64,000 nt of DNA, taken from the NCBI GenBank assembly GCA_951406725.2, contig OX597830.1, positions 44,392,001 to 44,456,000 on the forward strand. The letters run 5' to 3'. The stretch is from Octopus vulgaris (taxonomy: Eukaryota). The notes under the pieces were generated by a model. The model saw nothing but the letters and a program-made list of their open reading frames with translations, was not told where the DNA came from and ran no database searches. Numbering within the stretch: position 1 is the stretch's first letter; each line of letters starts with the position of its first letter. This document shows, in pieces, positions 14,216 to 58,320 of the stretch. The position numbers and the translations under genes are program-made.

Positions 14216-15232
14216 CATCATCATCATCATTGTTTAATGTCCGTTTTCCATGCTAGCATGGGTTGGACGGTTCAACCACTGTCTGGGAAGCCAGGAGGCT
14301 GCACCAGGCTCCAGTCTGATCTGGCAGTGTTTCTGCAGCTGGATGCCTTTCCTAACACCAACCACTCCGTGAGTGTAGTGGGTGCTTTTTACGTGCCACC
14401 GGCACAGGTATCACAACTACAATTTCCATTTGATTTTTATTTTGATGTTGATGTACTTGACTCAATAGTTCTCCTCAAGCATAGCAGGTTGCCCTACGAT
14501 CCAAGGTAGGCACAGCAGGCTGTCCTGTGAGCCATGAACTCACTTCATTTGTTGGGTCTTCGCAATCACAGCATATCTTCAGAGGACTCGGTCTTTTGTC
14601 ATTAACTCTGTGAGGCCCAATGTTCGAAGGTCATACTTGACCACCTCATCCCATGTCTTCCTGGGTCAACCTCTACCCCGGATTCCTTCAACTGTTTGGG
14701 AGTGGCACTTCTTCACACATCTCTCCTCATCCATCCATAGTACATGACCATACTGCCTCAAATGTCTCTCCTGCATGCCACATCCAATGCTTCTTATGTC
14801 CAACATTTCTCTCAGGGCACTTACACTCTGTCGTGCATGCACAGTGACATTACACATCCAGCGGATCATGCTAGTTTAATTTCTTTCGAGCATACACATG
14901 TCCTTCACAGTCACGGCCCATGTTTTACTGCCATGAAGCATGGCAGTTCACACAAATGCGTTGTACAATCTACCTTTCACTCTGAGTGAGAGACCCTTTG
15001 TTGCCTGTAGGGGAAGAAGCTTTCTAAACTTTGCCCAGGCTATTCTTATTCTAGTGGTAACACTCTCTGAGCATCCACCCCCACTACTAACTTGGTCACC
15101 TAGGTAGCAGAGGCTATCAACAACTTCTAGTTTCTTCCCCTGGAGTGTGATGGAATCTGTTTTCTGAGTATCTGTGGTGTCTATTGCCCCTGTGCATCTG
15201 CCACACAGGAAAGCTATCTTCTCGGTTAATTT
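14216..15232 (-). mobile_element. RTE-clade LINE, 3' half with (GAT)n tail
   Basis: KLTEKIAFLCGRC...LEVVDSLCYLGDQVSSGGGCSESVTTRIRIAWAKFRKLLP and MIRWMCNV, followed by 3' UTR and tail. Confidence 0.85.
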
Positions 15233-15432: not shown

Positions 15433-15744
15433 GGTAGAAAAATGGAGGAGAAAAAGATGTTGCATCGAAATTAGATTTAATACAAAATAGGATTCAATAC
15501 ATATGTACGTTTCAAAGGACAATGCAAATATGTAAGAAAAAATTATAATCATAGTAATTATAATTAAATTTATGCATTGTCATTCTCGACTTGAAAGCCC
15601 CCGCATTACTGGAAAACCCATGCAACTGGCCGAAGAGCACCCAGCATCCCAAATCCGCTGCAATACCTACAACCCTCAATAAAATGTTGCAGTGCGAAAC
15701 AACTGCCCCAAACTACCGGAGTCACTCCTGTTGCTTATTTTTTA

Positions 15745-15778
<34 letters not shown>

Positions 15779-15980
15779 TGTACACACGTATATATATTTA
15801 TATATGCATGTATATATACATGTAGATGAAGGTACGTACATATATGTTTGTATGTATGCATATATTTTATTTATTACACTATTGTATGACTGAGCGCCTT
15901 CGCGTCGATTCGATTCGTTTGGTTTCGTTTGGTTTCTTCTTCTTCTCTAAGCTGGTTTATATATATATATATATATATAC

Positions 15981-16042
<62 letters not shown>

Positions 16043-17610
16043 TATATACACAAAAACACATACATAAATACATACGCACAATTGTATATACATACACACA
16101 ATATCATTGTAACTCAATTTCTTTGTAGATGACCTGAAGATTTATGCTAAAAGTGTGAACCATGCTTAAAACCAACTGGAATTAATTCAATCCTTTTCAG
16201 CTGCTATTGCTAGACAGCCGTTCATCCGACCTTTCAACAGGTCTTGTTTTTAATTTTGTTGGGTTTCTAGCAAGCTCCTCATCTGGATATCCAGGTGGGG
16301 TTGCCAGTTTAGTTGCTGACAACCCAACCATGCAACTGGTTGTACTGGATTCCATGTTACCAGCCACAGTTATGAGAGCCTTGTAAGTGACCTGACATAC
16401 AGACAGACATACATAAATACATACATATATATTTGCATACTTACAAACACATACATACAGACATACATACATGCATACATACAGACATACATACATATAT
16501 ACATGCATACACACATACATGCATACACACATAATGTATGCATACATACATACGTACATACATACATACATACATACATACATGCATGCATGCATACATA
16601 CATACATGCATGCATCCATCCATCCATACATATATATTTGCATGCTTACAAACACATACATACAAACATACACACACACACATACATATATACATGCATA
16701 CATAAATACATATGCACATACATGCAGATTCATACATGCATGCAAACACACATACATACACATATATACACACATACATATGCACCACCAGTTTTAGACG
16801 TATCAGTTTTCCGATTTAGTGTTTTGTCTGACATTTGAAATCAGGATAAAAATTTTTTTAAATATTTGAAACGAACTCAAAAAAAAAAAAAAGAAACAGG
16901 ATAGAAATTGATTGCTGCATAACAAAATATGATAGCAGAGTGCGTAAAGTAATACTTATGTTGACCGATTTCTCAATCACAACGTGACTAACATCTCAGG
17001 TGTGGCTGACGATATGAAATTACGCCAGGTGTGTCCATTGTTCTAGTTAATTTAAGAAAAGTGATCCTCTCTAAAATTAACGATGATTATCTTGTTGCTG
17101 GTGGTGGTGGTGTTTTGTGTGTGTGTGTGTGTATTTGATATTGTTGGTACTGTTATTGTTGTTTCCCTCTCTTCCAGTTATCTGATCAAATGGCTGAAAT
17201 GCAGCCACACATATATTGTCCCTGATATACATATGACTGCATCAAGCTGACACCATAGAGGCCACGTCTACCTCTTGTGCTATCTCTAGTGAACATTTAA
17301 TTCTAGTGAGTTCTAATTTTAGATGTTGTTGTCCAGCTCCCAGATCATCTCTAATCCAGAAATCATTTGCTTAAAGACGTTTTATCCATGACCATCCTGT
17401 CTTTTGGCTATGAGTAATGTTGAAATTACATTATCTACAATAGCCTTTCTTTCTTATAACAGTAAGGCGTGAGCTGAGTGAGGTTTAGCTGCTTTTTCTA
17501 TCGGGTCTTCACGATAGCCAGTTGACAGCTTTGCAGTAATTGTTGCGGTTCTCTATGTTCTGAGATCAAATCCAGCTGAAGTCAAATTCTTTCCGGGTCA
17601 ATAGATAAAC

Positions 17611-18370
17611 TACTAGATAGAAATAACTACAGGGTCATCAAACTGCTGGATCAGGCGACGAAGGTCCCAGAGAGGGTCACAGCCCATCCCACCAGGGAGA
17701 GGATTTGCCTAGATGAGATGCAGTTCGGTTCTGTGCCAGGTAGAAGCACCACCGATGCTACATTCCTGCTCCGACAACTGCAGGAGAAGCACCTAGCCAA
17801 AGACAAACCCCCGCCACATAGCCTCTGTGGACTCGGAGAAAGCCCCCGACAGGGTCCCCCGATCCCCCATCCGGTGGTCGATGCGGAAACCGGAGATTGA
17901 CGAATGGCCAACAAGGACTGTACAGGCCCTATACAGAGAGGCCATCAGCAAGGTCAGAATTGGCAACGAACACAGTGAAGAACTCCGGGCAGAAGCAGGT
18001 GCACACCAAGGCCCAGCCCCCAGTCCCCCCCATTCATCACAGTCCTCCAGGCAACAACAGAGGAACTCAAAACAGGCCGCCCCCGGGAGCTCCCCCACGC
18101 CGACGACCTGGCCCCCATAGCAGAATTACCACCGGAACTAGAAAAGAAATCTCGGGCGCGGAAGCAAGGGCTAGAATCAAAAGGGCCCCAGAGTAAACGT
18201 AGCAAAGACCAAAGTTATAGCAAGCAGAAAGGCGAACTCAGTACACACACCCTCGGGCAGGTGGCCCGGCCCGATCTGCAGGAAAGGCGCAGGTAGAAAC
18301 TCCACAAGATGCACCCAGTGCAAGCCACGGACGCACAAGAGGTGCCGCAACATCAAAGGGAAACCAACCG

Positions 18371-18371
<1 letters not shown>
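17611..18371 (+). mobile_element. RTE-clade LINE reverse-transcriptase fragment, T>C hypermutated
   Basis: RT motifs are recognisable but systematically altered: QFGSVPGRSTTDA, ASVDSEKAPDRV, GAHQGPAPSP, ELPHADDL. Confidence 0.9.
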
Positions 18372-18416
<45 letters not shown>

Positions 18417-18424
18417 AGTAACCA

Positions 18425-18618
18425 CATGTGATTGTTGGTGATTTTTTTCCCTCCATCTTCTTTTCTATTGGATTTTTCTCTGTTTCTGAAGAAGAGCTTT
18501 TCTTGAAACATAAAACCACCTTTCTTTCCTTCCTTGAGCATCTGCTAATACTTTACATGTTCCACGTCCTTGTGTTGTTGTTGTTTACTGTTTGTTCTTC
18601 ATTTTTTAGGGGTTTTAC

Positions 18619-18620
<2 letters not shown>
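18425..18620 (+). mobile_element. Short Penelope-like repeat with minimal hammerhead motif (18482-18516)
   Basis: GTTT-CTGAAGA-A-GAGC-TTT-TCTT-GAAA-CA-TA-AAAC. Confidence 0.6.
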
Positions 18621-25239: not shown

Positions 25240-26012
25240 ATGTAGTGTCAATTCTTAATGAAATTAGTAGACAATCAACACTACTAAGCAACAAGAAAAG
25301 AACGAAAATATTATGCAAATACAACATTACAGCAAATGATTTACCTGAGGTTAAAGAAAAGCTAAAGCAAGATATTCTTGCCAAGCACAAAGGATCCGCC
25401 GGTATGAGAAACGCCAACGTTTCTTTGAACAAAACAAACAGTTCAACTCCAACCCCCAAAAATTCTACCTAGAACTTGGCAAAAATAAAACAGACATCAA
25501 TGCAGCACCAACAGCAGAAGACGGGTAGATTTTTGGAAAGAAATATGGTCGGCGAAGGAACAACCTCAGAAAAGGATTATTAATACAACGAACTTAGCAC
25601 CTGAACAACTCTGGCCCCCTATAACAACTGAAGAGGTCACCCAGGCACTGCAAAGACTAAGCAACTCGAAGGCACCTGGACATGACAAAATGCCCAACTC
25701 CTGGTTAAAATATCTGACAGGAATACACAAAAAGCTGGCTGAAAACTTTAACGACATACTAGCAGAACCAGAGACAATGCCTGAATGGCTCACGAAAGGG
25801 AAAACTATCCTAATTTCCAAATCAACTGAAATGGCACAACCACAAAACTACAGACTTATAACCTGTCTCCCTACAATTTACAAAGCCTTTACTGCAATAA
25901 TATCGCAAAGATTGAGCAAGCATCTGGAAGAAAACAACCTGTTTCCAGAAGAGCCGAAGGGATGTTGCAAGAGTTCACACGGCTGTAAAGATCATCTAAT
26001 GATCAATAAAGC
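25240..26012 (+). mobile_element. R4/Dong-like (RLE) LINE, N-terminal RT fragment
   Basis: KAPGHDKMPNSWLK...PEWLTKGKTILISK...PQNYRLITCLPTIYK...LFPEEPKGC...GCKDHLMINKA. Cut off where the LTR begins. Confidence 0.8.
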
Positions 26013-26451
26013 TGTAGGAGAATATGATGTTGGCACTTGTTGGGTGCCTCACATTTCCTTTCATAATTGTAAAAAGGAAAATTGCAGGAACACGAATCTC
26101 CGAACAAATAAACAATAATTTATTTTCACCGAAATAAGCATTTCATCTCTGGTCATCTGTAGCCTAGACGCCTGGGGGTGGAAACAGCAGAGTCGGTTTA
26201 AATCACAATTGTTGAAGGCATTCTTCACAGCTTGCCAAGTCGTATTCCTCCTTCACTCGGAGCTTGTCTGGTCGCGTCTGGTTCTCTCGCAGGAGCAAGC
26301 AAAAAGAGAGAGAATAGCGGTCTTGCCTAGCTGCTGCTGATGACTGCGCATGCGCAAAAGGGACTTCCGGTAGGACTTCCGGAAGACACTAATCCTTGCG
26401 CATGCGCAGATGAAGACCCCAAAATGGCATCTGGAACCTGGCGTCACTACA
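26013..26451 (-). mobile_element. LTR of an LTR retrotransposon (3' LTR)
   Basis: The - strand begins TGTAG and ends CTACA, preceded by purine tract AAGGGGGGTGGCT (26452-26464). AATAAA at 26119-26124(-). Partial second copy at ~26745-26924. Confidence 0.7.
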
Positions 26452-28849: not shown

Positions 28850-30408
28850 CGAAAGAAGGTTTGAAAATGCAATTTTAAAGAAGAAATGTTCCTTGCTTTG
28901 GTTAGGTCTTTTCATGAAGACATGAATGGTAGGGTGAATGTTAGAGGGAAAATGTCGGAGCCCATTTCAATACAAAATGGAGTGAAACAGAGGGGTATTC
29001 TGGCACCGACCCTTTTTCTAAATATTTTGCGATGGTGTTCTGTATAGCATTAAGAAACTGCAGACACTGTGTTTATATCCATTATCGAACCTCTGGCAGC
29101 ATATTTAATATCAGGCGCTTTGCTGCAAAAACAAAGGTATTTACCTCTATCATAAGAGACCTTTTGTATGCAGATGATTGTGAGCTAGTAGCACACACAG
29201 AGATTGATATGCAACACATTTTGAATGCATTCTCTGATGCTTGCACTGCCTTAGGATTGACAGTCAATCTCAAGAAAACTGTTGTCATGCTTCAACCTGC
29301 CCCTGGTAAGCAGTATAGTGTACCAAATATCTATGTGTATGGTAAACGACTTGGTGTAGTTGATCAGCTTGTCTACCTGGGAAGCACTATTAATAGATAT
29401 AGCAATTTGGATGATGAAATTCCATATAGAATTAGGAAAGCAAGTGTTGCTTTCGGAAGGCTAGAAAAGCGCCTCTGGAGTCGGCGAGACATATGTAGAA
29501 AGACAAAGATAAAGGTGTACAAGGCATGTGTGCTCCCTTCTCTTATCTATGCCTGCGAGACGTGGGTCACATATCGATACCACCTTAAACAACTGGAACG
29601 TTTCCATCAGATGTGTCTTAGACGGATCTATGGCATTAAGTGGAAGGACCGCATCAGTGATCTTGAAATATTGGAAGGCTCTCGGTGTGAAAGTATAGAA
29701 GCTCTTGTGTTAAAGCAAAGGCTCAGATAGAGTGGTCATCTGGTCAGGATGAAGGATTCAAGGATGCCAAAACAACTCTTTTATGGAGAGTTAGCTAAAG
29801 GAGAACGACCTCCATATAAACCAAAAAAGAGGTATAAGGACTTGCTGAAGGTTTCCTTAAGAGATGCTTGCATCTCTCCTGACACATGGGAAGGCATAGC
29901 TATTGATCGTAGCAGGTGGAGAAAGATTGTGCACGAGGGGACAGCCACTTTTGAGAAATCTCGAGTTGCACACGAGAAAGTAAGGAGGGATGTCAAGAAG
30001 GGCATCGTTGATGCACTTCCAGATGGGAAGGGTCTTCCTATGATGCTGACATGCAGTGTCTGTGCAAGACCCTGCCTCAGTAAAGCTGAGTCATCTTCGT
30101 AGTAATAAAGCGAGACAGATGAGTGACAACCTGGCAACAGGTGGTGGTGTAACACACCATACTAATCATATCTGTCGGGCATGCGGAAGAGAGTGTAATT
30201 CGGCAGGAGGACTTAAACGACATTCAAAGGTACATGGAGCCCAGTTACAACTACAGCCGGCTATTACCGGTAAAGGTTTTAGTTGCCAATTTTGTACAAG
30301 ACATTGTAGATCTTTAGCTGGGCTAAAAAGTCACATTCGATCACAGCACCAGTAACAGTTAAGCTTCGTGCAATGGCCATACTCGATAACGAGGGGGCAG
30401 TCATCATA
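28850..30408 (+). mobile_element. RTE-type LINE, 5'-truncated, RT plus C-terminal C2H2-like zinc fingers (pseudogenised)
   Basis: GVKQ..ILAPTLF, LLYADD, VNLKKT, YLGS. RLR* (TAG at 29728-29730 where W is expected). Then [44 protein letters not shown]. Confidence 0.9.
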
Positions 30409-37488: not shown

Positions 37489-38686
37489 GCATCTATTTTG
37501 AAAATTAGCGTTCATTTTATTCGCATTCATTCCCAATAAAATTTGAAAACAAAAAAAAAAAGTAAAATCATAATTATTCTTTATCTGTTACATTACCTGT
37601 TATTACCTGCAATTAGCAAGAGTATATATTCCCTGCATCACCCGTCATAAGGACGGTTAATACTCTTTTAAATATATTCTGCCGTCTGAGTGTGCTGACA
37701 TAAATACTTTTATGTGGGATGTTAAAGATAAGTGTCATGCTTGTTAATCTAAAAATAACAATATTCAAATACAAAGAGACAGATATCTGTCATAGATTTT
37801 GTCCTATACATTTGTCTAGTGTGTGTGTGTGTGTGTATGTGTGTGTGTGTGTGTGCGTGTGTGAATGTTTTTAAAGTCACACCCTGAAATAATAATCAGC
37901 ACAGCATTATTTATGTAGATAAAAAGTATGTTTAGATTTTGAGGATAGAAAATGTGGTAGATAAGTTGTAGTTTCAAAAGAGGGGAAAATTAAATGCGTG
38001 AGTTTTAAATTAAAATACAACCCCAAACGCCGAATCGAAGTGTTGAACTTAAAAATTGGGAATTATAAACAGAACAACACATACACACACAAACACAGAC
38101 ACGGACACCCACACACATGCGTGCACATACACACGGACACACACACATGAGCACACACGCACACACACACACACAAGTCATTACTGACTTGGATAATGTG
38201 TAGTTGTGACCTGAAGTCGAGTTAGTCAAGCATAACTAGTCATTACCCAAGTGTAAGTCTGTATAATATCATAACACAGTACAACGTATTGGTTCATTAC
38301 ACAGTTCACCTGACACGTCTGTTCTCCTCCTCTGCCTACACCCATTTCTTCAATCCAGCTTTTTTTGTTTCATTTCAGTTTTTTTTTCTTTTCGCTTTTT
38401 ACTTGTTTCCCTTGAAATAACTTGCGGCTTCATTACCATATATGAGACAACAACAACAAGTTTCTGGGCGGATAAGTAGATCAAGACAAGGAAATAATTC
38501 TGTCACAACCACACTAATATCGACGATGACCGTACCTTGTTTTAAAATATTTACTTTTGTTAAACAGTAGCAGATAAATCTAGGACAAACACACATTCCA
38601 GAAAAAAAAAAAAAAAAAAAATAAAACAGACTTTTAAAATTTATATACATTCGCAGTCAAATCTTTGTTAACTTTAAAGCACAAAC

Positions 38687-38809
38687 ATGGACAGTAAGCT
38701 TGACTTCATCGTCATTAAGAATGGATCGGATAGCTGCAAAGCTGGATTTCGAGATGACACTACACCAAAGACAGTGATCCCTTCAGTTGTTGCTTATTCC
38801 CAAAATGAG
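38687..38809 (+). CDS. Divergent actin, coding exon 1 (aa 1-41)
   Basis: MDSKLDFIVIKNGSDSCKAGFRDDTTPKTVIPSVVAYSQNE aligns to the actin N-terminus ([29 protein letters not shown]). AAAC-ATG context. Donor GAG|GTATGT at the conserved actin 41/42 intron position. Probable 5'UTR acceptor CAG ending at 38656. Confidence 0.9.
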
Positions 38810-38818
38810 GTATGTCTT

Positions 38819-38879
<61 letters not shown>

Positions 38880-39270
38880 CTAGTATTATAACCCGATTTC
38901 ATTTTAAAGCTGAGGAATTTTGCTCTAGAGGCCACGCCTTTCAAGTGAGCAAACTCAAAGTTGCCATGCAAACTCCCCAACACTTTTAACATAGGTGTGC
39001 AAATTTTCAGGTCAATCCGACCACATTTACTAACACTTTTGCCTGCACAACTGCTTGTAAGACTACGTCCGCCCTTTTCACAAATAAATAGTAGATATAT
39101 AATCGCTCTATTTTTCTTTAGAAGTGTGCTTGTTTCTGACTCACGAATAAGTCACCGATAGTAATATTTATAAAATGCATACTCACGCACACATTGCATT
39201 TATGTGCTTCACTTAAATACCTAACTTAGATTATGTGTACGGTTGTCATAACATTCCGTATGTATACATA

Positions 39271-39602
39271 CAGTGGCAGACTGAGTCTAAAAATATTGGT
39301 TGCCAGGAGACTAAGGGAACCAACCCGCAACTACAAGGGGGCCTATCCGCAACTACAAGGGGACCCACTCGCAACTACAATGCTATCATTTAATTTGCTT
39401 TTCTTAAAAGTGTTCTTTTCAACTGTCTACAAACGTAGCCAGGCTGAAATAATTAATGCATTCTTCCAGGAGTGAATAAAAAATTCTCAAACTTGAGGCG
39501 ATGGGCCCCTTAGATACTAACATGGGCTCCCTTATATGGATTCTAATGGCGCAGGGGCCCACTTGCCATCGGGCAAGCTGGCAACCTGGCAGTCCGCCAC
39601 TG
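39271..39602. mobile_element. hAT-type MITE in actin intron
   Basis: TIRs CAGTGGCAGACTG / CAGTCCGCCACTG with perfect 8-bp TSD TATACATA. Confidence 0.85.
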
Positions 39603-39682
39603 TATACATACATACATGCATACATACATGCATGCATGCATATATACATACATAGACATATATGTACGTATGTACATGTGTA

Positions 39683-39775
<93 letters not shown>

Positions 39776-39781
<6 letters not shown>

Positions 39782-39907
39782 TATATAGAAGGAGCTTCTA
39801 CAGGACTAGAACTGTTTCATTCAAGAGAAATCTTCAGGAAGCTTCCTGAAGATTTCTCTTGAATGAAACAGTTCTAGTCCTGTAGAAGCTCCTTCTATAT
39901 AATAAAT
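39776..39907. repeat. Perfect 132-bp spacerless palindrome
   Basis: Centred on AAGCTT (39839-39844). Arms contain CTGAAGA...GAAAC...GTC. Confidence 0.9.
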
Positions 39908-40004
39908 TAATTTTACTCTGCTATGTATTGAGTACCTTATTTACTGTGGTTAACCCCGAATCAACCCGGGACCTACATATATAATATATATATATATATT
40001 ACAT

Positions 40005-40385
40005 CGTCGTACTCGGTCGGTTACGACGACGAGGATTCCAGTTGATCCGATTAACGGAACAGCTTGCTCGTGAAATTAACGCGCAAGTGACTGAGCACTC
40101 CACAGACACATGTACCCTTAATGTGGTTCTCGGGAAGATTCAGTGTGACACAGAGTGTGACAAGGGTGGCCCTTTGAAATACAGGTACAACAGAAACAGG
40201 AAGAAAGAGTAAGAGAAAGTTGTGGTGAAAGAGTACAGTTGAGTTCGCCACCAGCCCCTGCCGGAACCTCGTGGAGCTTTAGGTGTTTTCGCTCAATAAA
40301 CACTCACAACGTCCGGTCTGGGAATCGAAATCGCGATCTTATGACCGTGAATTTGCTGCCCTAACAGCTGGGTCATTGTGCCTCC
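40005..40385 (-). mobile_element. SINE-like repeat family D
   Basis: tRNA-like head on - (GGTCATAAGATCGCGATTTCGATTCCCAGAC). CpG-rich relative to flanks. Confidence 0.5.
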
Positions 40386-40482
40386 CCACCCACAGAGACA
40401 CACACATATATACGTATATATATATATTTGTATATAAATACACACGCATTATCTATGTATGTGTGTGTGTATATATATATAT

Positions 40483-40699
40483 ACTCTTTTACTCCTCTAC
40501 TTGTTTCAGTCATTTAACCGTGGCCATGCTGGAGCACTGCCTTTAGTCGAGCAAATCAACCACAGGACTTATTCTTTGTAAGCCTTGTACTTATTCTATC
40601 GGTCACTTTTGCCGAACCGCTAAGTTACGGGGACGTAAGCACACCAGCATCGGTTGTCAAGAGATGTCTGGGGGCGGGGGAACAAACATAGACACACAA

Positions 40700-40774
<75 letters not shown>

Positions 40775-40930
40775 TACGACGGGCTTCTTTCAGTTTCCGT
40801 CTACCAAATCCACTCACAAGGCTTTGGTCGGCCCGAGGCTATAGTAGAAGACACTTGCCCAAGGTGCCACGCAGTGAGACAGAACTCAGAACCATGTGGT
40901 TCGAAAGCAAGCTACTTACCACACAGTCAC
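40483..40930 (-). mobile_element. SINE family A
   Basis: Full family match. Confidence 0.85.
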
Positions 40931-40988
40931 TATTTGTATATGTATATTTGTATATCTATATATATTTGTATACCTATATATATATATG

Positions 40989-41034
<46 letters not shown>

Positions 41035-41288
41035 CATATATATACGTATGCATGTATCTATGTATGTATATATCTGTGTGTGTGTGTGTCTCTATTACTC
41101 TACCACCCATGTCGTTTGGCAACAGATGTTGGGCGTGTTCACGCAATTTAGCGGTTCGGTAAAAGAGACCAATTGAATAAGTACATGGCTTAAAAACAAA
41201 GAAAAGCCCTGTGGTTGATTTCTTCCACTAACCTCCTTTAAGGCGGTGCTCTAGCATGACCACCGTCAAATGACTGAAACAAGTAAAA

Positions 41289-41513
<225 letters not shown>

Positions 41514-41523
41514 CACACACACA

Positions 41524-41556
<33 letters not shown>

Positions 41557-41581
41557 CACATATATATACACACACACACAC

Positions 41582-41624
<43 letters not shown>

Positions 41625-41911
41625 ACTCACACATATATATAAATTTAAATAATCCCCAAATGGAGAAATTTTTTGATCAACAAACAAGCATACTGGACCA
41701 CATCTGTAGATTATTTTTTTAATACAAGACATGACATCACATTTCTGTGACATAACTGTAATGTCTTGTCATGCTTTTGTATTAAAAAATAATCTACAGG
41801 GAGATCATAGGTAACTGATAGCGATAGTAAATATGGATATTTTTATCCCTTAGTCGGTCACTATAACCGCTATACGCTTGCATGTGTGCATACGAATGTG
41901 CGTTTGTGTAT

Positions 41912-41944
<33 letters not shown>

Positions 41945-42385
41945 CTAGTTAAGTTGAATGTGTAGGTGGACTAAAAAAATGCCACATTCCCCTAAAACTG
42001 CAATTCTTTCGAAACAATTTTAAGAATGTCCAGATTGTTCGTGCATTTAAGTGTGTGATCCTCCGATGTATCCCATACGCTATTCCAAAATATTTGTTGA
42101 GGATGGGAATGTTAACCCTTTGCGTGTGTCGTATCACATATGATACGCAAGACACATCTCCCTGGAGCTCATGCATCATATATGTTATACATTCACAATG
42201 TTTCCTAACCACTAGAGTAAGCTGGAACTTGGGAAAAACATATAAAAAACATAAACTCACTAAAAGTCTGAAAACATGGATTTGATTTTGCGGTCTTACG
42301 TCAAGCATATTCATTAATTAAAACACGTTTGTTTCGTAGTTTTACTTAACAGCTTAAAGTTAAATTAGAATTGAGAAACTGTACA

Positions 42386-42592
42386 AGGCGGCGAGCTGGC
42401 AGAAACGTTAAGATACCGGGATAAATGTTCAGCAGTATTTTGTCTGTCATTACGTTCTGATTTCAAATTCCGCAGAAGTCGAGTTTGCCTTTCATCCTTT
42501 CGGGGTCGATAAAGTAAGTACAAGTTGCGTAATAGGGTCGATCTAATCGAGTGTCTCCTGCCACAAAATTTCGAGCCTTGTACCTAGAAAAG
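42386..42592 (+). mobile_element. SINE family B
   Basis: Family head and core. Confidence 0.8.
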
Positions 42593-43699
42593 AAAAATAA
42601 TTGAGAAACTGTACATACTAATAATTTCCTATTTGATTTGAAGAAGATGATTAGTATTAGGAAACCTATTACATGTTAGTAATTAAGTTATTCATTCAAC
42701 CAATTTTATTTACGAGGAAGATATGTATTAAGTTCAATACTGGCTTTAATGCATCAAAAAACGGAAATAGAATGGTAAATCTAATGATTAGCATTCAGTG
42801 AAGATAAAGCAAATCTGTTCATTTAACGTTGCCATTTTATTTAATTATTGTAATTTATTTAGTTTGAACTGTGTTGGATCTCTGAAATATTCTGAGCATT
42901 GAATCAACTTTAAACACCTAATTATTCATAAAAGTTGAACGTAATACAATACTGTGCTATATAACTTTAGTACTATAATAATACTCTTTACGTGGGTCTC
43001 TTGACAATGCGAGATCCGTAACCGTATGCTAGATTAACCGAATTAATTCAATGAATAATCTTTCGATTTCTTCATACACCTCTTTGCAATGAGTTTGATC
43101 TGGGACTAAACTCACACAAAAGGACAAATGTCTACGGAGTTTCTCTTTCTAAAAATAATATTACTGGATAATTGCTTTACTTATTTAATGTCCATGAATT
43201 TCAATTCAATATAGTCTGTACATACAAATCACACATCCTATTCCTCTCCAAGATACAACCCTTCCTCTCCTTATCTGTAACCCTTCACTTCTGTCCAGGT
43301 TACACTGTAAACTAAAACCTCTATTCTAAAAGGCGGTGTCAGCACATACGTATATTCTACTTTCTCTTCAATTCACCTCCCTCATCTGCTCATCCGCAAT
43401 AACATTTCGATATATCTTTTCCTGAGTCAAACACAATTCTCTCACTTTAGTCCTCTCTGAAATTATCGTTTTCAGTCGCTTCAATGCTTTCAAGTGTCTT
43501 TGGTTTCCAATTTTAATATCGCCGGAGATACAAAACCTCAATTTTACACAGTCCTCAACTATGTTTATGAATACGTTTCGTCTGCTACACGCATCCATGA
43601 TAAATACTTAGATATTTCAAATACAGTTGTTTTTTTTTTGTCTCTGTCTCTGTATCTCGTGGTTTGACTGAATACTGATTCATCGCTACTCCCCACCAC

Positions 43700-45490
43700 A
43701 CATCTACATAATATTCCCCCACCACCATCATTGATTTCTATGGTACTTCAGCTCAAATGGCGAGTTGGGGCTCCATTCGTGCTATCCATAGCTATCCATG
43801 GCAGTATATATGCTTCGCCCTCGATCATTTAGAAGCAGTGAAGCGGGTGACTGAAACCACCCGCTTAACCATAATTCACAGTTTCTGGTCCCCGAATTGG
43901 TTCAATAATAGCTGTGCTGCAGCAGACTAGACGAAGAAAACGACCAACAACTCTTGGAGCAAAGCTCATACCACCCGGAAGTGGACGACGGTTCTTGTCC
44001 AGCACCGCAACTCCTTTAAGACAATCATACGAAGTACAAGAAATAATCCCATATATCACACAACTTACGAACATCCCCAAACTGTAACCTTTCCTTTAAC
44101 TCTCTGACCCAAAGAATCTTTACAACATCAAGAAATCATCCTCTCCTCCACTTCTCAATCACAATAATTCTCTCCGCTTTGAATCCAGCTCCGCACTGCA
44201 CACACGAGGTAAGATTCACCCCAAACCTTCCCTTCAGGTTCAGAACTACGTAATCAACAATACAAGCACAAAAACACTTTCAGTCGCTCCACACCCATAA
44301 GGTTGCCATCCCTTACAAAATAACTCACCTATTACCCTAAAACAATCAACCTCACAGCTGGCCTCTATCTTCACCAATCTCCTTTCCCCTCTTCACCATA
44401 CACTCTCGATCTGCCTGTCTGCCTCTTTCCTCTCTCTCTCTCTCATTCCCTCTTGCTCTCTCTTTGAGGATATCCCGCTCTTTGGAAACATGGTACAGGA
44501 TATCCATGCTACAGGGTGTCCCATTCCGGAGAAGGCAAAGCACTTACTCGGTTAACTATTTTCCTACCGAACTTGCTTCCAACATCTCAAAGATGATGAG
44601 AAAGTCATTAACAGTCATATTCCCCAACACCTTCAACCCCTTTCTCTCTTTAAGGGCTATTAAGAAGGTTCTAAACCATTCTGAGGACCGACTCTTCTAT
44701 TGAGGATCGACTCTTTTATGTTGCCCACCCGGAAATATCTCACAATGTGGTCATGTCGTTCCTGTCTCCTTCAATAGCACAAAAGGCACAATCACCACAT
44801 ATATCAAGTAAAAAGAATTACCCCGCTTACCTCTCAACATGAAGAGCACGCAACTAAAGCCTTCAAAGTTGCTGCAAATGCTAGGCATCGCAATCACTGA
44901 CGATCTCTCCTGGTGAATACACATCTTCACTATAACAGCTTTCCTCTTCACAACCAGAAAATACTTAATCACCTAATAACTATCAACCGTGTAGGAAACT
45001 TAGATCACAATACTGCCCTCACTTCCCTGACGGTTCAGCTGAAATATTGACATCCTACTTAGAGAACATCAAAAATATAAAATAAACAAGTCAACCGACT
45101 GATTGGCTTCGCGTGGCTGACTGACCCACTTAAACCTCAGGCACAAACTTATTTGTTTCTTCTCTTTGATCTTTCTAACTCTACTTTAGAGGTATGTATT
45201 TCTCGAAGCTGGCTGGTCCCGTACTTCCTTCACTCAGACACTCTTAACTCACCCAGCTCTCCTTTCATGCACCTCTAATTTCTTTCCAGACATTCATCTC
45301 CAACTCTATCTTCCTCAGATCATTGGTCCCCTGGAATGCCAATCCTGCGCATGCTATTCCTGTAGTTGTCGACTTTCAAATGTTCCAGAGGAACATTAAA
45401 CGCTTTGATCTCACCAGTCTCGGAGAACCCTGTGATTTCCAAGAGTCCAAGCACTTGATTTTCACGAGCACAGAAAGTATAATAAAAATA
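43700..45490 (+). mobile_element. Highly decayed CR1/Jockey-group LINE
   Basis: C-rich sense strand. Relic motifs LGIAITDDLSW*IHI (~44880) and RSLVPWNANPAHAIP (~45320). Confidence 0.5.
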
Positions 45491-46196
45491 AGCGAATATT
45501 TGGTCACCATGTAATATTTGTTCAATTCTCGTCTTGCATGAATTGTATGTCTTACTTCTTTACGAAAATCTTTATTGCTGTTCAGTAAAAGAGACAAAGA
45601 TCCTTCCCAAGTTATACAAACTCATACGGGCTGGCTTTCCGGTTTCCGTGGTGCATATATACATTTAACCCCTGGACAGGACGCCAGTTCTTCGCAGGGT
45701 TATTCATCTTTACCAGCTGAGTGAACTGGAGCAATGTGAAACGGAGTGATCCGCTCAAAGACACAACGCATTGCCTGGTCCAGGAATCGAAACCACAATC
45801 TTTCGATCATGATTCCACTATGTCCTTACCACTATGTCCTTACCACTTTGTCCTTGCCTCTATGTCCTTACAAAATATGTCTAGCACTTTGTTTTCATCG
45901 AACCCCAGAAATATAAAATGCAAAGTTAAGTTGGACGGTTTTGAACTCAGAAGGAAAGTTTGTAGCAGAATTCCATAAAATATTTGTCTAACGCTGGTGA
46001 TACTTGATGCGTAAGAGAATGTTCTGGATAGAGTTTCAGTTATTCAAGACATTTCACTTTTATTTGGTACCTTTGACATAAAAATATAATTTCATTCATT
46101 TGTAATTTATTTGTTTCTGTAATTCATATTCTGACAATATTTTTTCAAAATTAATTTCAGTTTCTAGGAATTTAATTATTGTTTACTGTATTTCAG

Positions 46197-47213
46197 GTGG
46201 AAAGTGGATACAAAGGCGGCTATGTTGGAAATGACGTTAAAAGCAAGAGAGGAGACTTTACCTTAAAATACCCTATTGAACGTGGTATCATAACCAACTG
46301 GGATGATATGGAAAAGATTTGGCATCATATATTCAAGAACGAGTTGAAAGTTTCACCCGAAGAGCACCCTGTCTTTATGACCGAGACTGTTAATAACCCT
46401 AAGGCCAACAGAGAAAAGATGACGAAAATTATGTTTGAAAAATTTAACATCCCTGGCATGTATTTAGGTATACAGTCTGTATTGTCCCTTTATGCTTCTG
46501 GTCGTACGACAGGCATTGTTATTGAGTGTGGGCATGGCACCACCCATATTGTCCCCATATATGATGGGTACACCCTGGCTCAGGCAGTCACACGTCTTGA
46601 TTTTGCTGGTAAAGACTTGACAGATTACCTGAGAAAGATCTTGGTTGATAGTGGCTTAACTTTTGCATCAACTGCTGAGAGAGAAACCATTCGAAATATC
46701 AAAGAAGGTTTATGCTATGTTGCCCTAGACTACGAACAGGAAATGAAAACTGCAAACTCCTCTTCATCTCTGGAAAAGAGTTATACGTTGCCCGATGGAC
46801 AAGTCATCTCTATGAATCGAGAAAGGTTCCAAGCATCAGAAGCTTTGTTTAAGCCATCTTTAATTAATATCGAATCTACTGGTATTCATCAAGCAACTTA
46901 CAATTCAATCATGAGGTGTGATATCGATGTTAGGAAAGATATGTATGCCAACGCTGTATTGTCCGGTGGTTCCACAATGTACCCAGGTATTGCTGATCGC
47001 ATACAGAAGGAAATCAGTGACCTTGCACCACCCACCATGAAAATTAAGGTCATTGCTCAACAAGATCGTGAAAACTTTGCATGGATTGGCGGTACTCTGT
47101 TGCCTTCTCTGTCCACTTTTGAAAAACAGTGGATTACCAAGCAGGAATACGACGAAGCTGGCCCACAAATCATCCACAAAAAATGCTGTCAACCGATAAT
47201 CGATAACGAATAG
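46197..47213 (+). CDS. Divergent actin, coding exon 2 (aa 42-379, stop TAG)
   Basis: Acceptor TATTTCAG|, phase 0, compatible with exon 1. Open frame with actin signatures [59 protein letters not shown]. Candidate AATAAA at 47707 and 47845. Confidence 0.95.
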
Positions 47214-51210: not shown

Positions 51211-52536
51211 TTGGGTTGGCAACTAAGTTGCCACCGGTTTTTTAAATTTAAATTTTTTAAAAGGTTTAATAAAAATTAACAACTAATTAATTAATAATGT
51301 ATTCACCCTTGTTGTTTACAACTTCTTCCCAACGTTCAACAAAATTTTCAATACCTCGTTGGTAGAAATCACCCGATTTCGACTCGAAAAATGATCCAAC
51401 CAAACTCTCAATTCTGCATCAGTATTGAGCAAAACTCCGCGCATAGCATTTGAAAGAGATTGAAAGAGGTGGAAATCCGTTGGTGCCAAATCAGGAGAGT
51501 ACAGCGGGTGTGGCAGCACTTTCCAGCCATGTCATAACTGGAAAGTGCTGTTTGAATGGCTTCCTTGGTCATATTGGCGATATGAGGGCGGGCGTTTTCG
51601 TGCAGCAGAAAAACTCCATGCTGCCGATTAGGTCTTTTCTCTTGAATAGCCGTGTTGAGGTAGTTCCATCTGTTGAACATAGAGTTTCGCGTTGACCGTT
51701 TGGTTCCGATCAAGCAATTCGTAATGGATAATCAGTTCCCAGTCCCACCATAAGCACAACATCGTTTAACGCGGATGAAGATCTTGTTTCACGCGCGGTG
51801 TCGCTTGTTTACCTGGTCTAAGCCATTCCTTACACTGCTTCATATTGATGTACAGGCACCATTTTTCGTCGCCAGTAACGATTCGGTAAAGAAATCGTTG
51901 CTTGTGTCCATGAGTTGAGCGGTGACGAGCAAGCAAACCAGCGGAGATTGTGAGTCGTTGACTTTTGTTGTTGTCACTTAAAGCATGCAGAACCCATGCT
52001 CCATACTTCTGAACCTTTCCCATCGAGTGAAGATGCTTCTCTATTACAGTGTGGGAGCACTCCCTTGTCGTTTGACGAGAATTTTCGTGCAAAAGTTGGT
52101 TTAATCGCTCTTCATCGAACTCAACTGGAAGGCCAGAACGAGGTGCGTCTTTGAGATCAAAATTTCCATTTTTGAACTTGGCATACCAATCACGAGCGAT
52201 TCTTTCAACTATGGCACCCTCTCTACACACAGCACAAATGTCGCGAGCGGCTTTTGCGATCTTAGAACCTTAATTAAAAGCAAAAGGTGGTGTCGAAAAT
52301 GCTCGTTTTTCTTAACTGGTCTTAACTTGACATTCCATTTTATTGATCTGAAAATAAACAAAAATTAACTAAAATTAAGTAGAAAAACAAAACAACAAAC
52401 AAACAAACAAAATAGATTCCAAAATGATTCAAAAATAGAATTCTCGAAAAAAAATAGATTCCAAAATTTAAAAACGCAATAAATTCCAAAATAATAATAA
52501 TAATAAAAAACGGCGGGAACTTAGTTGCCAACCCAA
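51211..52536 (-). mobile_element. Full-length mariner transposon (mellifera-like), transposase pseudogene ~52338-51288
   Basis: TIRs TTGGGTTGGCAACTAAGTT / AACTTAGTTGCCAACCCAA with TA flanks. Motifs RSGLP, WVLHAL, TGDEKW, HENARPH, YSPDLAPTDF spread over several frames. Confidence 0.95.
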
Positions 52537-57189: not shown

Positions 57190-58320
57190 GAGAAGGTAAC
57201 AGTGATGGAGTAGGTGGTGTGGGAATATTTCTTGCAGAGAAATGGGTGGATAAGGTCATAGAGGTAGTCTGAGTGTGCGATAGAATACTTAAGCTCAGGC
57301 AAGTCTTACAGAATAGCATAGCTACAATTATCTCTGCCTATGCCCCACAAGCAGCCCTGCCAAATGAACAGAAGGACCACTTTTACTACATTCTTCTGCA
57401 GGCTACTTTAAATATGAGGGACTATGGTTTTGTCTTCGTGGTTGGGGATTTCAATGGGCATGTCAAATGGCACCCTATTATCTTCTATGCTGTATACGGG
57501 GGCTGTGCAACTGATGTCCAAAATGAAGAGGGAACAAGGCTATTAGAGTTCTGTGATGCAAATGACTTACTGATCTGCAACACCAACTTCAGGAAGCCAG
57601 CCAACCACCTGATCACCTATCAATCAGATGATTTTACTAGCCAGATCGATTTCATTCTCACCAGACAGTATGATGCATGGTTGCTCTTGAATACAAAAAC
57701 CCTCAGAGATCAGCACTATGTGCTGATCTCTAACTATGGAGGGAACCTGTGGTAGAAGTAGATCCAGGAAGACATGGGACGAGGTGGCAAAACATGAATT
57801 TCGAACTTTGAGCCTCACAGAGGCAATGACCACTGGCTGAGACCTTTGGCGATTATGCTGTGCTTGACAAGACCCATCAAGCCAAGTGAGTTCAAAGTCA
57901 TGACTGATGCTAGAGTCATGTAACAGGCACTTGTGCTGGTGGCATGTAAAGAGCACCTTTCAAGTGTTGGACCTCATGGAGAGGAGTTCCTTTCGGGTGT
58001 TGAGCTTCACAGAGGCAAAGTGGCTGTGTTACTTTCAAGTATTTGGCCTCACAGAGGCAATGACTAAGACCTTTGGCATTATGTCATGTATGAGAAGAAG
58101 ATCCATCAACCCAAGCAAAATCACAGTCATGGTAAATACCATTGTCATGCAAATGGCACCCATGCTGGTGGCACATAAAAGCTCCCATTACACTCTTGGT
58201 GTAGTTGGTGTTAGGAAGGGCATCCTGCTGTAGAAATCATGCCAAATCAGCCTTGTAGAATGCCAGCCCAGTCAAACCATCCGACCCATGGACAACAGAC
58301 GTTAAATGATGATGATGGTG
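57190..58320 (+). mobile_element. Internally deleted RTE LINE (APE endonuclease fused to 3' end)
   Basis: GVGGVGIFLAEKW, IISAYAPQ, GDFNGHV, LLEFCDANDL, QIDFIL, then a jump at ~57720 to the 3' end and (GAT)n tail. Confidence 0.85.

Follow-up and report, generated by a model that had tools for sequence, protein, structure and literature searches.

The closest described parallels to the locus reported here are avian retroviruses, with "nearly 50%" of the adenosines described as changed in an inverted-repeat region of one of them (reviewed in PMC12925331), and vertebrate retroelements edited by APOBEC enzymes, a type of editing of which the LTR elements of 19 invertebrate genomes were reported to be devoid (PMC4866542). 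In octopus, hyper-editing is described at the level of RNA: the survey concerned counts octopus as one of its two most hyper-edited species, depletion of G 5' of the edited adenosine is given there as the shared ADAR motif, and bulk octopus hyper-editing shows a weak 3' G preference (PMC5625713). Edited sites are also linked to A>G substitutions, and this link is usually read as selection or tolerance; an action of ADAR on DNA, or reverse transcription of edited RNA, has been proposed on indirect grounds (PMC10209271, PMC7703385). Whether RNA edits reach inherited DNA is an open question, and the locus offers a concrete case that can be tested by PCR. It has internal controls as well, namely two edited pieces with an unedited middle and unedited flanks, common to independent samples. 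A literature search that covered main texts with few subscription papers among them turned up no cellular retrocopy described as hyperedited by ADAR and fixed in the germ line.

The window, meaning the whole stretch of DNA analysed, comprises 64 kb of the Octopus vulgaris genome (G000:C17:44,392,001-44,456,000; assembly of 2.80 Gb in 227 contigs) and contains a 2.8-kb insert with dense T>C changes in both of its end pieces (98 of 218 T pooled), the parts of which are listed in Table 1. The larger end piece had been noticed from its letters alone as a T-poor LINE segment, and its T-poverty is real: there are 6 T in 18001-18060 and 4 in 18061-18120, and the nine most T/A-poor 400-bp intervals of the 64 kb all lie on it. 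A genome search with 17611-18371 gave 3,938 candidates, and the other copies among the 40 that were scored reach at most 88% identity. Aligned one by one to 29 fetched paralogs, the window carries 74-82 T>C and 1-2 C>T relative to each, in about 758 columns. At columns with at least 80% agreement among these paralogs, 73 of 165 T are replaced by C, 0 of 231 A by G on the plus strand, and other changes number 7; the spectrum is one-class and not symmetric, and the count of T>C (73-80) is well above the "about 40" first estimated by eye. The changes are A>G on the strand antisense to the LINE, just as originally read. G>A affects 2 of 195 G, so the pattern is not the G>A on the element's sense strand that marks APOBEC. 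Three one-base indels lie at 17813, 18028 and 18179.

An intact paralog (L009) matches RVT_1 (E = 1.5e-29) and then a PHD-like finger in Pfam, and the family tail is (GAT)n, a short tandem repeat. This combination of non-LTR RT domain, cysteine finger and short tandem-repeat tail is that of the clade which we take to be RTE. The motif changes first pointed out are present in the translations for LPHADD, ASVDSEKAPD, IRW and RPRE, where an intact copy has LLYADD, AFVDLEKAFD, IWW and CPWE; in a further motif the A that had been counted among the changes is the family's own (GVHQGSALSP) and no edit. Over codon positions 1/2/3, edited T are distributed 19/32/22 and unedited T 25/44/22, and this lack of codon bias argues that the C-rich form is no selected subfamily. 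A multi-copy C-rich subfamily, named beforehand as a possible source of the pattern, is contradicted by the identity of the best paralog and by the 31-mers of the segment, 1 of 730 of which is common to the 29 paralogs. The non-edit divergence of about 1-2.5% implies that the event is not recent, yet postdates this LINE subfamily. The edited part has 6 of 8 alleles diagnostic of the lineage that is embedded in a host repeat; at the seventh diagnostic column the window has C, the lineage T and the family A. At columns 17667 and 18077 the window has C, as against T in the source lineage and A in most of the family, so it was copied from that lineage first and changed afterwards.

The limits 17611-18371 proved too narrow, because a second patch is also edited. 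In the Penelope-like end piece 25 of 54 T are changed to C, with no C>T and 3 other changes relative to the copies on contig C29. The members of its family, with about 2,260 first-look candidates genome-wide, all stop at one fixed 3' end, are 5'-truncated to varying extents, form inverted copies placed head to head and target microsatellites, traits described for Penelope-like elements (PMC8557442). Three ORF pieces of the element gave no Pfam match for a PLE-type RT or GIY-YIG endonuclease; in the Atlas they fall with eukaryotic RT-like clusters at 0.91-0.95. An ADKT motif and a C-terminal motif are presumably those of such elements. Hammerhead core-like words can be seen by eye in the terminal repeat, for which there was no Rfam hit at gathering score and no fold better than shuffles; five sources in all gave no Rfam hits. 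The piece in the window has 1 of 3 C29-private alleles and is without the C29 3' junction. No hyperediting was found in 50 other Penelope-end alignments. At L078-L083 and L108-L136 the terminal repeats often form head-to-head inverted pairs at microsatellites, with the fixed 3' end, and are thus ready-made hairpins; the DNA of these pairs shows no hyperediting.

Table 1. Parts of the insert, its flanks and the neighbouring LINE copy (positions in the window).
Feature	Position	Strand	Basis
Older RTE copy, inserted separately in a (TA)n site; 5'-truncated, no hypermutation	14216..15232	-	alignment to family
Left flank: unrelated dispersed repeat cut at junction, unedited	15436..15587	.	0 T>C of 43 T
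Complete insert, copied from part of a C29 tandem-repeat unit: Penelope-like end, then host repeat, then RTE LINE part	15588..18372	- (strand of inferred edited RNA)	piece order as in L033
3'-terminal 152 bp of Penelope-like terminal repeat	15588..15739	+	comparison with C29 copies
Young dispersed repeat inside insert, unedited	15776..15965	.	0 T>C of 85 T
Low-copy host repeat of C29 arrays, unedited	16050..17612	.	6 T>C of 382 T in non-microsatellite parts
RT region of 5'-truncated RTE-type LINE, cut again at 18372	17613..18372	+	paralog alignment; T>C = A>G on minus
Right flank: (TA)n tract	18373..18417	.	sequence

The borders of editing follow the borders of the pieces. The outermost edits (15590 and 18369) lie no more than 3 bp from the outer junctions, and the high-copy repeats just outside the insert have 2 of 115 T changed (0/43, 0/40 and 2/32). 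On the inner side, the last edit of the first patch is at 15728, 11 bp before its repeat ends at 15739, and the first edit of the second is at 17636, 23 bp after the LINE starts at 17613; the chance of such a coincidence with the repeat junctions is roughly 0.002. Marks of target-primed reverse transcription (TPRT) are missing at the insert, where neither a 3' poly(A), element tail or T-run at 15588 nor a target-site duplication is seen, the left flank being a cut repeat, whose normal continuation was not found within the window, and the right flank (TA)n. The left junction (15585-15590) has 2-3 bases of microhomology, the third counting as a match only on condition that its T had been edited beforehand. 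Relative to its paralogs the host repeat in the window has three private deletions, one of about 0.7 kb at 16203 and two smaller ones, of 9 bp at 17005 and of 31 bp at 17260; inspected by eye on the minus strand, none of them has the GT-AG ends that canonical intron loss would require. The largest lies between short direct repeats, which is what template switching or recombination would give. The young repeat within the insert must have arrived after the event, since it is unedited and six C29 units do not have it. Immediately to the right of the (TA)n tract, 18418-18620 is another dispersed repeat with hammerhead-like words by eye, for which one relative was available for comparison. Elsewhere the window holds actin gene exons (38678-47210, +; Pfam Actin, E = 1e-112 and 3e-7), a C2H2 finger fragment (30050-30352, +), a mariner-type HTH fragment (51769-52269, -) and further RT and endonuclease fragments (25489-26115, 28945-29727, 57273-57752, +).

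The pieces of the insert occur in the same order at L033 (G000:C29:29.66 Mb), the only unit with all of them. The LINE is embedded in the host repeat, which forms tandem arrays on C29 and has single copies on C1, C9 and C13 and in the window, 9 of 29 LINE paralogs have the same upstream flank, and host-repeat copies without the LINE exist as well; in six units at C29:29.57-29.69 Mb the Penelope-like end precedes the host repeat. By pairwise distances of the host repeat, L033 is 5.1% from the window versus 3.1-3.2% for the C1 and C13 copies, and the stretch 16050-16203 is closest to the Penelope-bearing units, with 4-7 differences as against 13-21 for the best copy in the other units shown. As judged from these comparisons, no present-day unit is the exact source, and an ancestral, since-diverged unit is the simplest account. 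The C29 arrays (27.63-27.90, 29.07-29.08, 29.56-29.69 and 19.43-19.65 Mb) and the single copies on C1, C9 and C13 comprise about 40 copies of a mosaic tandem unit of retroelement pieces, with or without the LINE, which has a period of about 8.9 kb at 29.65-29.69 Mb and lies beside C2H2 zinc-finger exons.

A second LINE copy to the left of the insert had been taken for the "unmutated 3' half" of the same element and used as an internal control. It cannot serve as such, 14381-15232 being a separate, older copy with 81 differences over 790 columns and a mixed spectrum, and the copy as a whole (14216-15232) having 2 of 8 source-lineage diagnostic alleles versus 6 of 8 in the edited part. It was inserted separately, and it is the 29 paralogs that establish T as the state of the family. 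A link between 14381-15232 and the edited part through twin priming or inversion was considered and rejected, the two being different copies by spectrum and diagnostic alleles. Although unrelated and 3 kb apart, the two RTE copies have ends (15222-15232 and 18361-18372) that differ by no more than 11 nt in family position, each beside (TA)n; chance, a truncation hot spot or homology used at integration may account for this.

The 5' neighbours of the changed bases fit ADAR. Pooled over both patches and read on the minus strand, the edited fraction is 0.60 after T, 0.58 after A, 0.36 after C and 0.19 after G, so that 8 of 42 sites with a 5' G are edited versus 90 of the other 176 (19% vs 51%, p = 1.4e-4). 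On the 3' side the fraction is 0.61 before G and about 0.39 before the others (p = 0.005), and G follows 36% of edited sites as against 26% of all. A 5' T precedes 39 of the 98 edits, leaving 59 outside TpA, and 26 of 65 sites with a 5' T are unedited, so the pattern is not restricted to TpA. The dense one-class cluster on one strand (98 of 218, with 0 of 231 A>G on the plus strand of the LINE part) and the 5' G depletion bear out the ADAR-like spectrum and context proposed at the outset, and a density near one half would match promiscuous editing of a long duplex.

The C-rich segment is present in inherited DNA. Some of its words occur in 11 public runs from eight studies, seven of which hold 0.20-0.35 of them. 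Contigs were compared from 4 of the 11 runs (X1, X2, X4 and X5), whose kinds are guesses ('DNA?', '?') and one of which may be the source of the assembly. X1 has contigs over 17606-17742 (0 differences, depth 46) and 17720-17908 (1 difference and 1 gap), X2 one over 17590-17954 (3 differences, depth 9) and X5 one over 17945-18147 (0 differences, depth 10); in X4 no long piece over the edited part was found among the matches listed. The X1, X1, X2 and X5 pieces cover 10, 17, 29 and 25 edit sites, together 54 of 73, and the depth of the C-rich contigs is 9-47 versus about 1e5 for the summed family. X1, X2 and X5 come from three studies with three organism labels and have the same C pattern, which we take to be genomic, as full agreement at 25 of 25 sites would not be expected of RNAs edited independently. 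The caution that the pattern might be an artefact is thereby answered for these sites, and basecalling errors do not explain the indels at 17813 and 18028, which lie inside gap-free contigs of X2 and X5 (2 of the 3; 18179 is outside the listed pieces). Run X3, guessed to be RNA, has 0.28 of the edited segment's words; these may stem from transcription of the C17 copy or from DNA.

We consider it probable that a minus-strand transcript was hyperedited by ADAR where it could pair with repeat RNA, and was then reverse-transcribed and captured at a break. The minus strand of the C29 unit would have been transcribed, antisense through the RTE LINE and the Penelope-like pieces; these two high-copy pieces would have formed long duplexes with complementary repeat RNA, in which ADAR would have turned about 45% of the adenosines of both into inosine, and the low-copy middle, for want of a partner, would have stayed unedited. 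A 2.8-kb part of this RNA would then have been copied in the germ line by some reverse-transcribing polymerase that read inosine as G, and the cDNA inserted into C17, a DNA break being the most likely site, and inherited since. Both edited pieces are antisense on the minus strand and belong to families with thousands of candidates each, and since the middle is low-copy, the layout is the one expected from a duplex defined by its partner. Capture at a break is favoured over target-primed insertion because the insert has neither a tail nor a target duplication and the repeat that flanks it is cut off at the junction. Of the options first offered, cDNA from a hyperedited antisense transcript is thus the one that gains support, from the one-strand A>G, the two-patch layout and the genomic presence.

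A number of observations weigh against this account. None of the 11 listed runs is on record as RNA that would show the source unit transcribed. A candidate host transcript in the predicted direction does exist, in that both Penelope-bearing arrays have a C2H2 zinc-finger exon on the minus strand 7-10 kb to their left, but zinc-finger orientation is mixed, 3 of 4 exons beside arrays fitting and two of these being one duplicated pair. No inverted partner in cis of useful length was found in C29:29.61-29.72 Mb (110 kb) or in 84 kb around the window, and in the other fetched array flanks inverted pieces are no longer than 115 bp; the partner is therefore assumed to have acted in trans, as sense element RNA, or to be a lost or distant copy. 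G is favoured on the 3' side more than in the published bulk octopus motif (PMC5625713), the retrocopy hallmarks of a tail, target duplication and canonical intron loss are absent, none of today's units matches the source exactly, and there is one event only.

Among the rival explanations, the one that survives best has ADAR deaminating dA in the DNA strand of a hybrid before integration, with minus-strand cDNA or ssDNA annealed to its template or to sense repeat RNA. This predicts the same strand, class and context, the DNA of DNA/RNA hybrids is a substrate of ADARs in vitro (PMC5389660), and annealing in trans to sense LINE and Penelope RNA would confine the edits to those pieces. A hybrid of template and cDNA, however, is duplex throughout, yet the middle has 6 of 382 T changed, and efficient DNA editing is described mainly at dA-C mismatches or with mutant enzymes (PMC12925331, PMC5389660), a saturation of 45% being a dsRNA figure. 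With 1.9 kb unedited between the patches, editing of the DNA strand along a hybrid, which had been put forward as one of the options, is disfavoured and the explanation as a whole unlikely. A mutator other than ADAR, be it an error-prone polymerase or reverse transcriptase or a DNA adenine deaminase, could have made strand-specific A>G changes at both fragment ends. The 5' T/A preference resembles the motif of polymerase eta, which is WA, and both patches are terminal, as end-filling would give. TpA-directed A:T>G:C hypermutation is moreover known in an alga (bioRxiv 10.64898/2026.01.13.699255). We give this possibility little credit, as it has to face a density of 45% in one class, inner borders at repeat junctions, and 59 of 98 edits outside TpA with none on the other strand.

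It is also conceivable that the segment was duplicated to C17 as DNA and edited later in place, by R-loop editing or by conversion from its own edited transcript. DNA-level copying does happen, as the unedited host-unit duplicates on C1, C9 and C13 demonstrate, the missing retrocopy hallmarks would be explained, and RNA-templated break repair exists in human cells (PMC12065846). But the edits end at both structural junctions while the adjacent high-copy repeats are clean, no inverted partner lies within 84 kb at C17, and no minus-strand host gene was found among 80 scanned of 124 candidate window ORFs, all of which makes editing in place quite improbable. An assembly or basecalling artefact or a C-rich subfamily is barely credible, for even though one compared run may be the assembly's source, the run kinds are guessed, and 19 of 73 sites, the Penelope patch and both junctions are outside the listed contigs, three studies share the C pattern at a depth far below that of the family, RNAs edited independently would not coincide at all 25 sites of one piece, and no near-identical copy is among the 40 scored candidates.

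The proposed hyperediting of a transcript that was later captured remains the best reading of the locus, and the event is rare and not a general defence. The LINE-tail motif matches 43,640 places genome-wide, and with three required T>C it matches none, which puts a rough 95% upper bound at about 14 copies or 0.03% if the sites are independent. The other genome-wide screens, for the tail with three A>G, the RT region with two A>G, and two required T>C, each gave 0, and in a further screen with two T>C the window itself is the only match. All-against-all cluster scans of 104 sequences (469,413 positions), 29 loci (32,425) and 17 loci (52,050), which overlap and are biased to LINE and Penelope families, found nothing beyond the two patches of the window once three hits to microsatellites had been set aside. 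The suggestion of a heritable route of transposon inactivation is accordingly not borne out: the LINE was already a 5'-truncated passenger in another repeat, and no second hyperedited copy appeared in the five motif screens or the scanned loci. As a single, rare event with no function, the locus shows neither a defence system nor an evolutionary force. What it does imply is that both editing and reverse transcription took place in the germ line or in the early embryo. Inosine can direct the cleavage of RNA, and the position of both insert ends inside the putative edited duplexes fits such cleavage. More speculatively, germ-line hyperedited antisense repeat RNA may be cut in inosine-rich duplexes and become part of chromosomes, and the heavily editing coleoids may harbour a class of fossils of this kind, although we hold this general form of the idea to be doubtful. 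If true, past ADAR activity would have left a record in DNA that can be dated, and the fossils would prove directly that blocks of A-to-I edits can turn into inherited A>G changes.

Among known systems, the restriction of LINE-1 by ADAR1 shares with the locus an ADAR and a LINE; it is described as independent of editing, with L1 RNA unedited, whereas here there is editing and no restriction (PMC5224506). In Bigelowiella natans, dense T/A to C/G transitions likewise occur in mobile or foreign DNA, but there they are reported at TpA only, and here most of the changes lie outside TpA, on one strand of a single copy (bioRxiv 10.64898/2026.01.13.699255). APOBEC-edited vertebrate retroelements also show a dense one-class, one-strand cluster against the family in a genomic copy; that change is G>A, in contrast to the A>G found here on a non-LTR passenger, which is not the element's own replication intermediate and does not, for this reason, amount to restriction (PMC4866542, PMC2873906). 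Hyper-edited repeat RNA of octopus has the same A-to-I clusters in repeat-derived duplexes and the same 5' G depletion; those clusters are in RNA, while the present one is in DNA, is identical between samples and favours a 3' G more strongly (PMC5625713). The avian retroviruses, Rous-associated virus as well as avian leukosis virus, have in common with the locus A>G on one strand at about 50% of adenosines, confined to a duplex and fixed by reverse transcription, as summarized in a review (PMC12925331). These are viral cases from infection or culture, whereas the change on C17 would have arisen in a cellular read-through repeat transcript, antisense to the elements it crosses, and is inherited under three organism labels.
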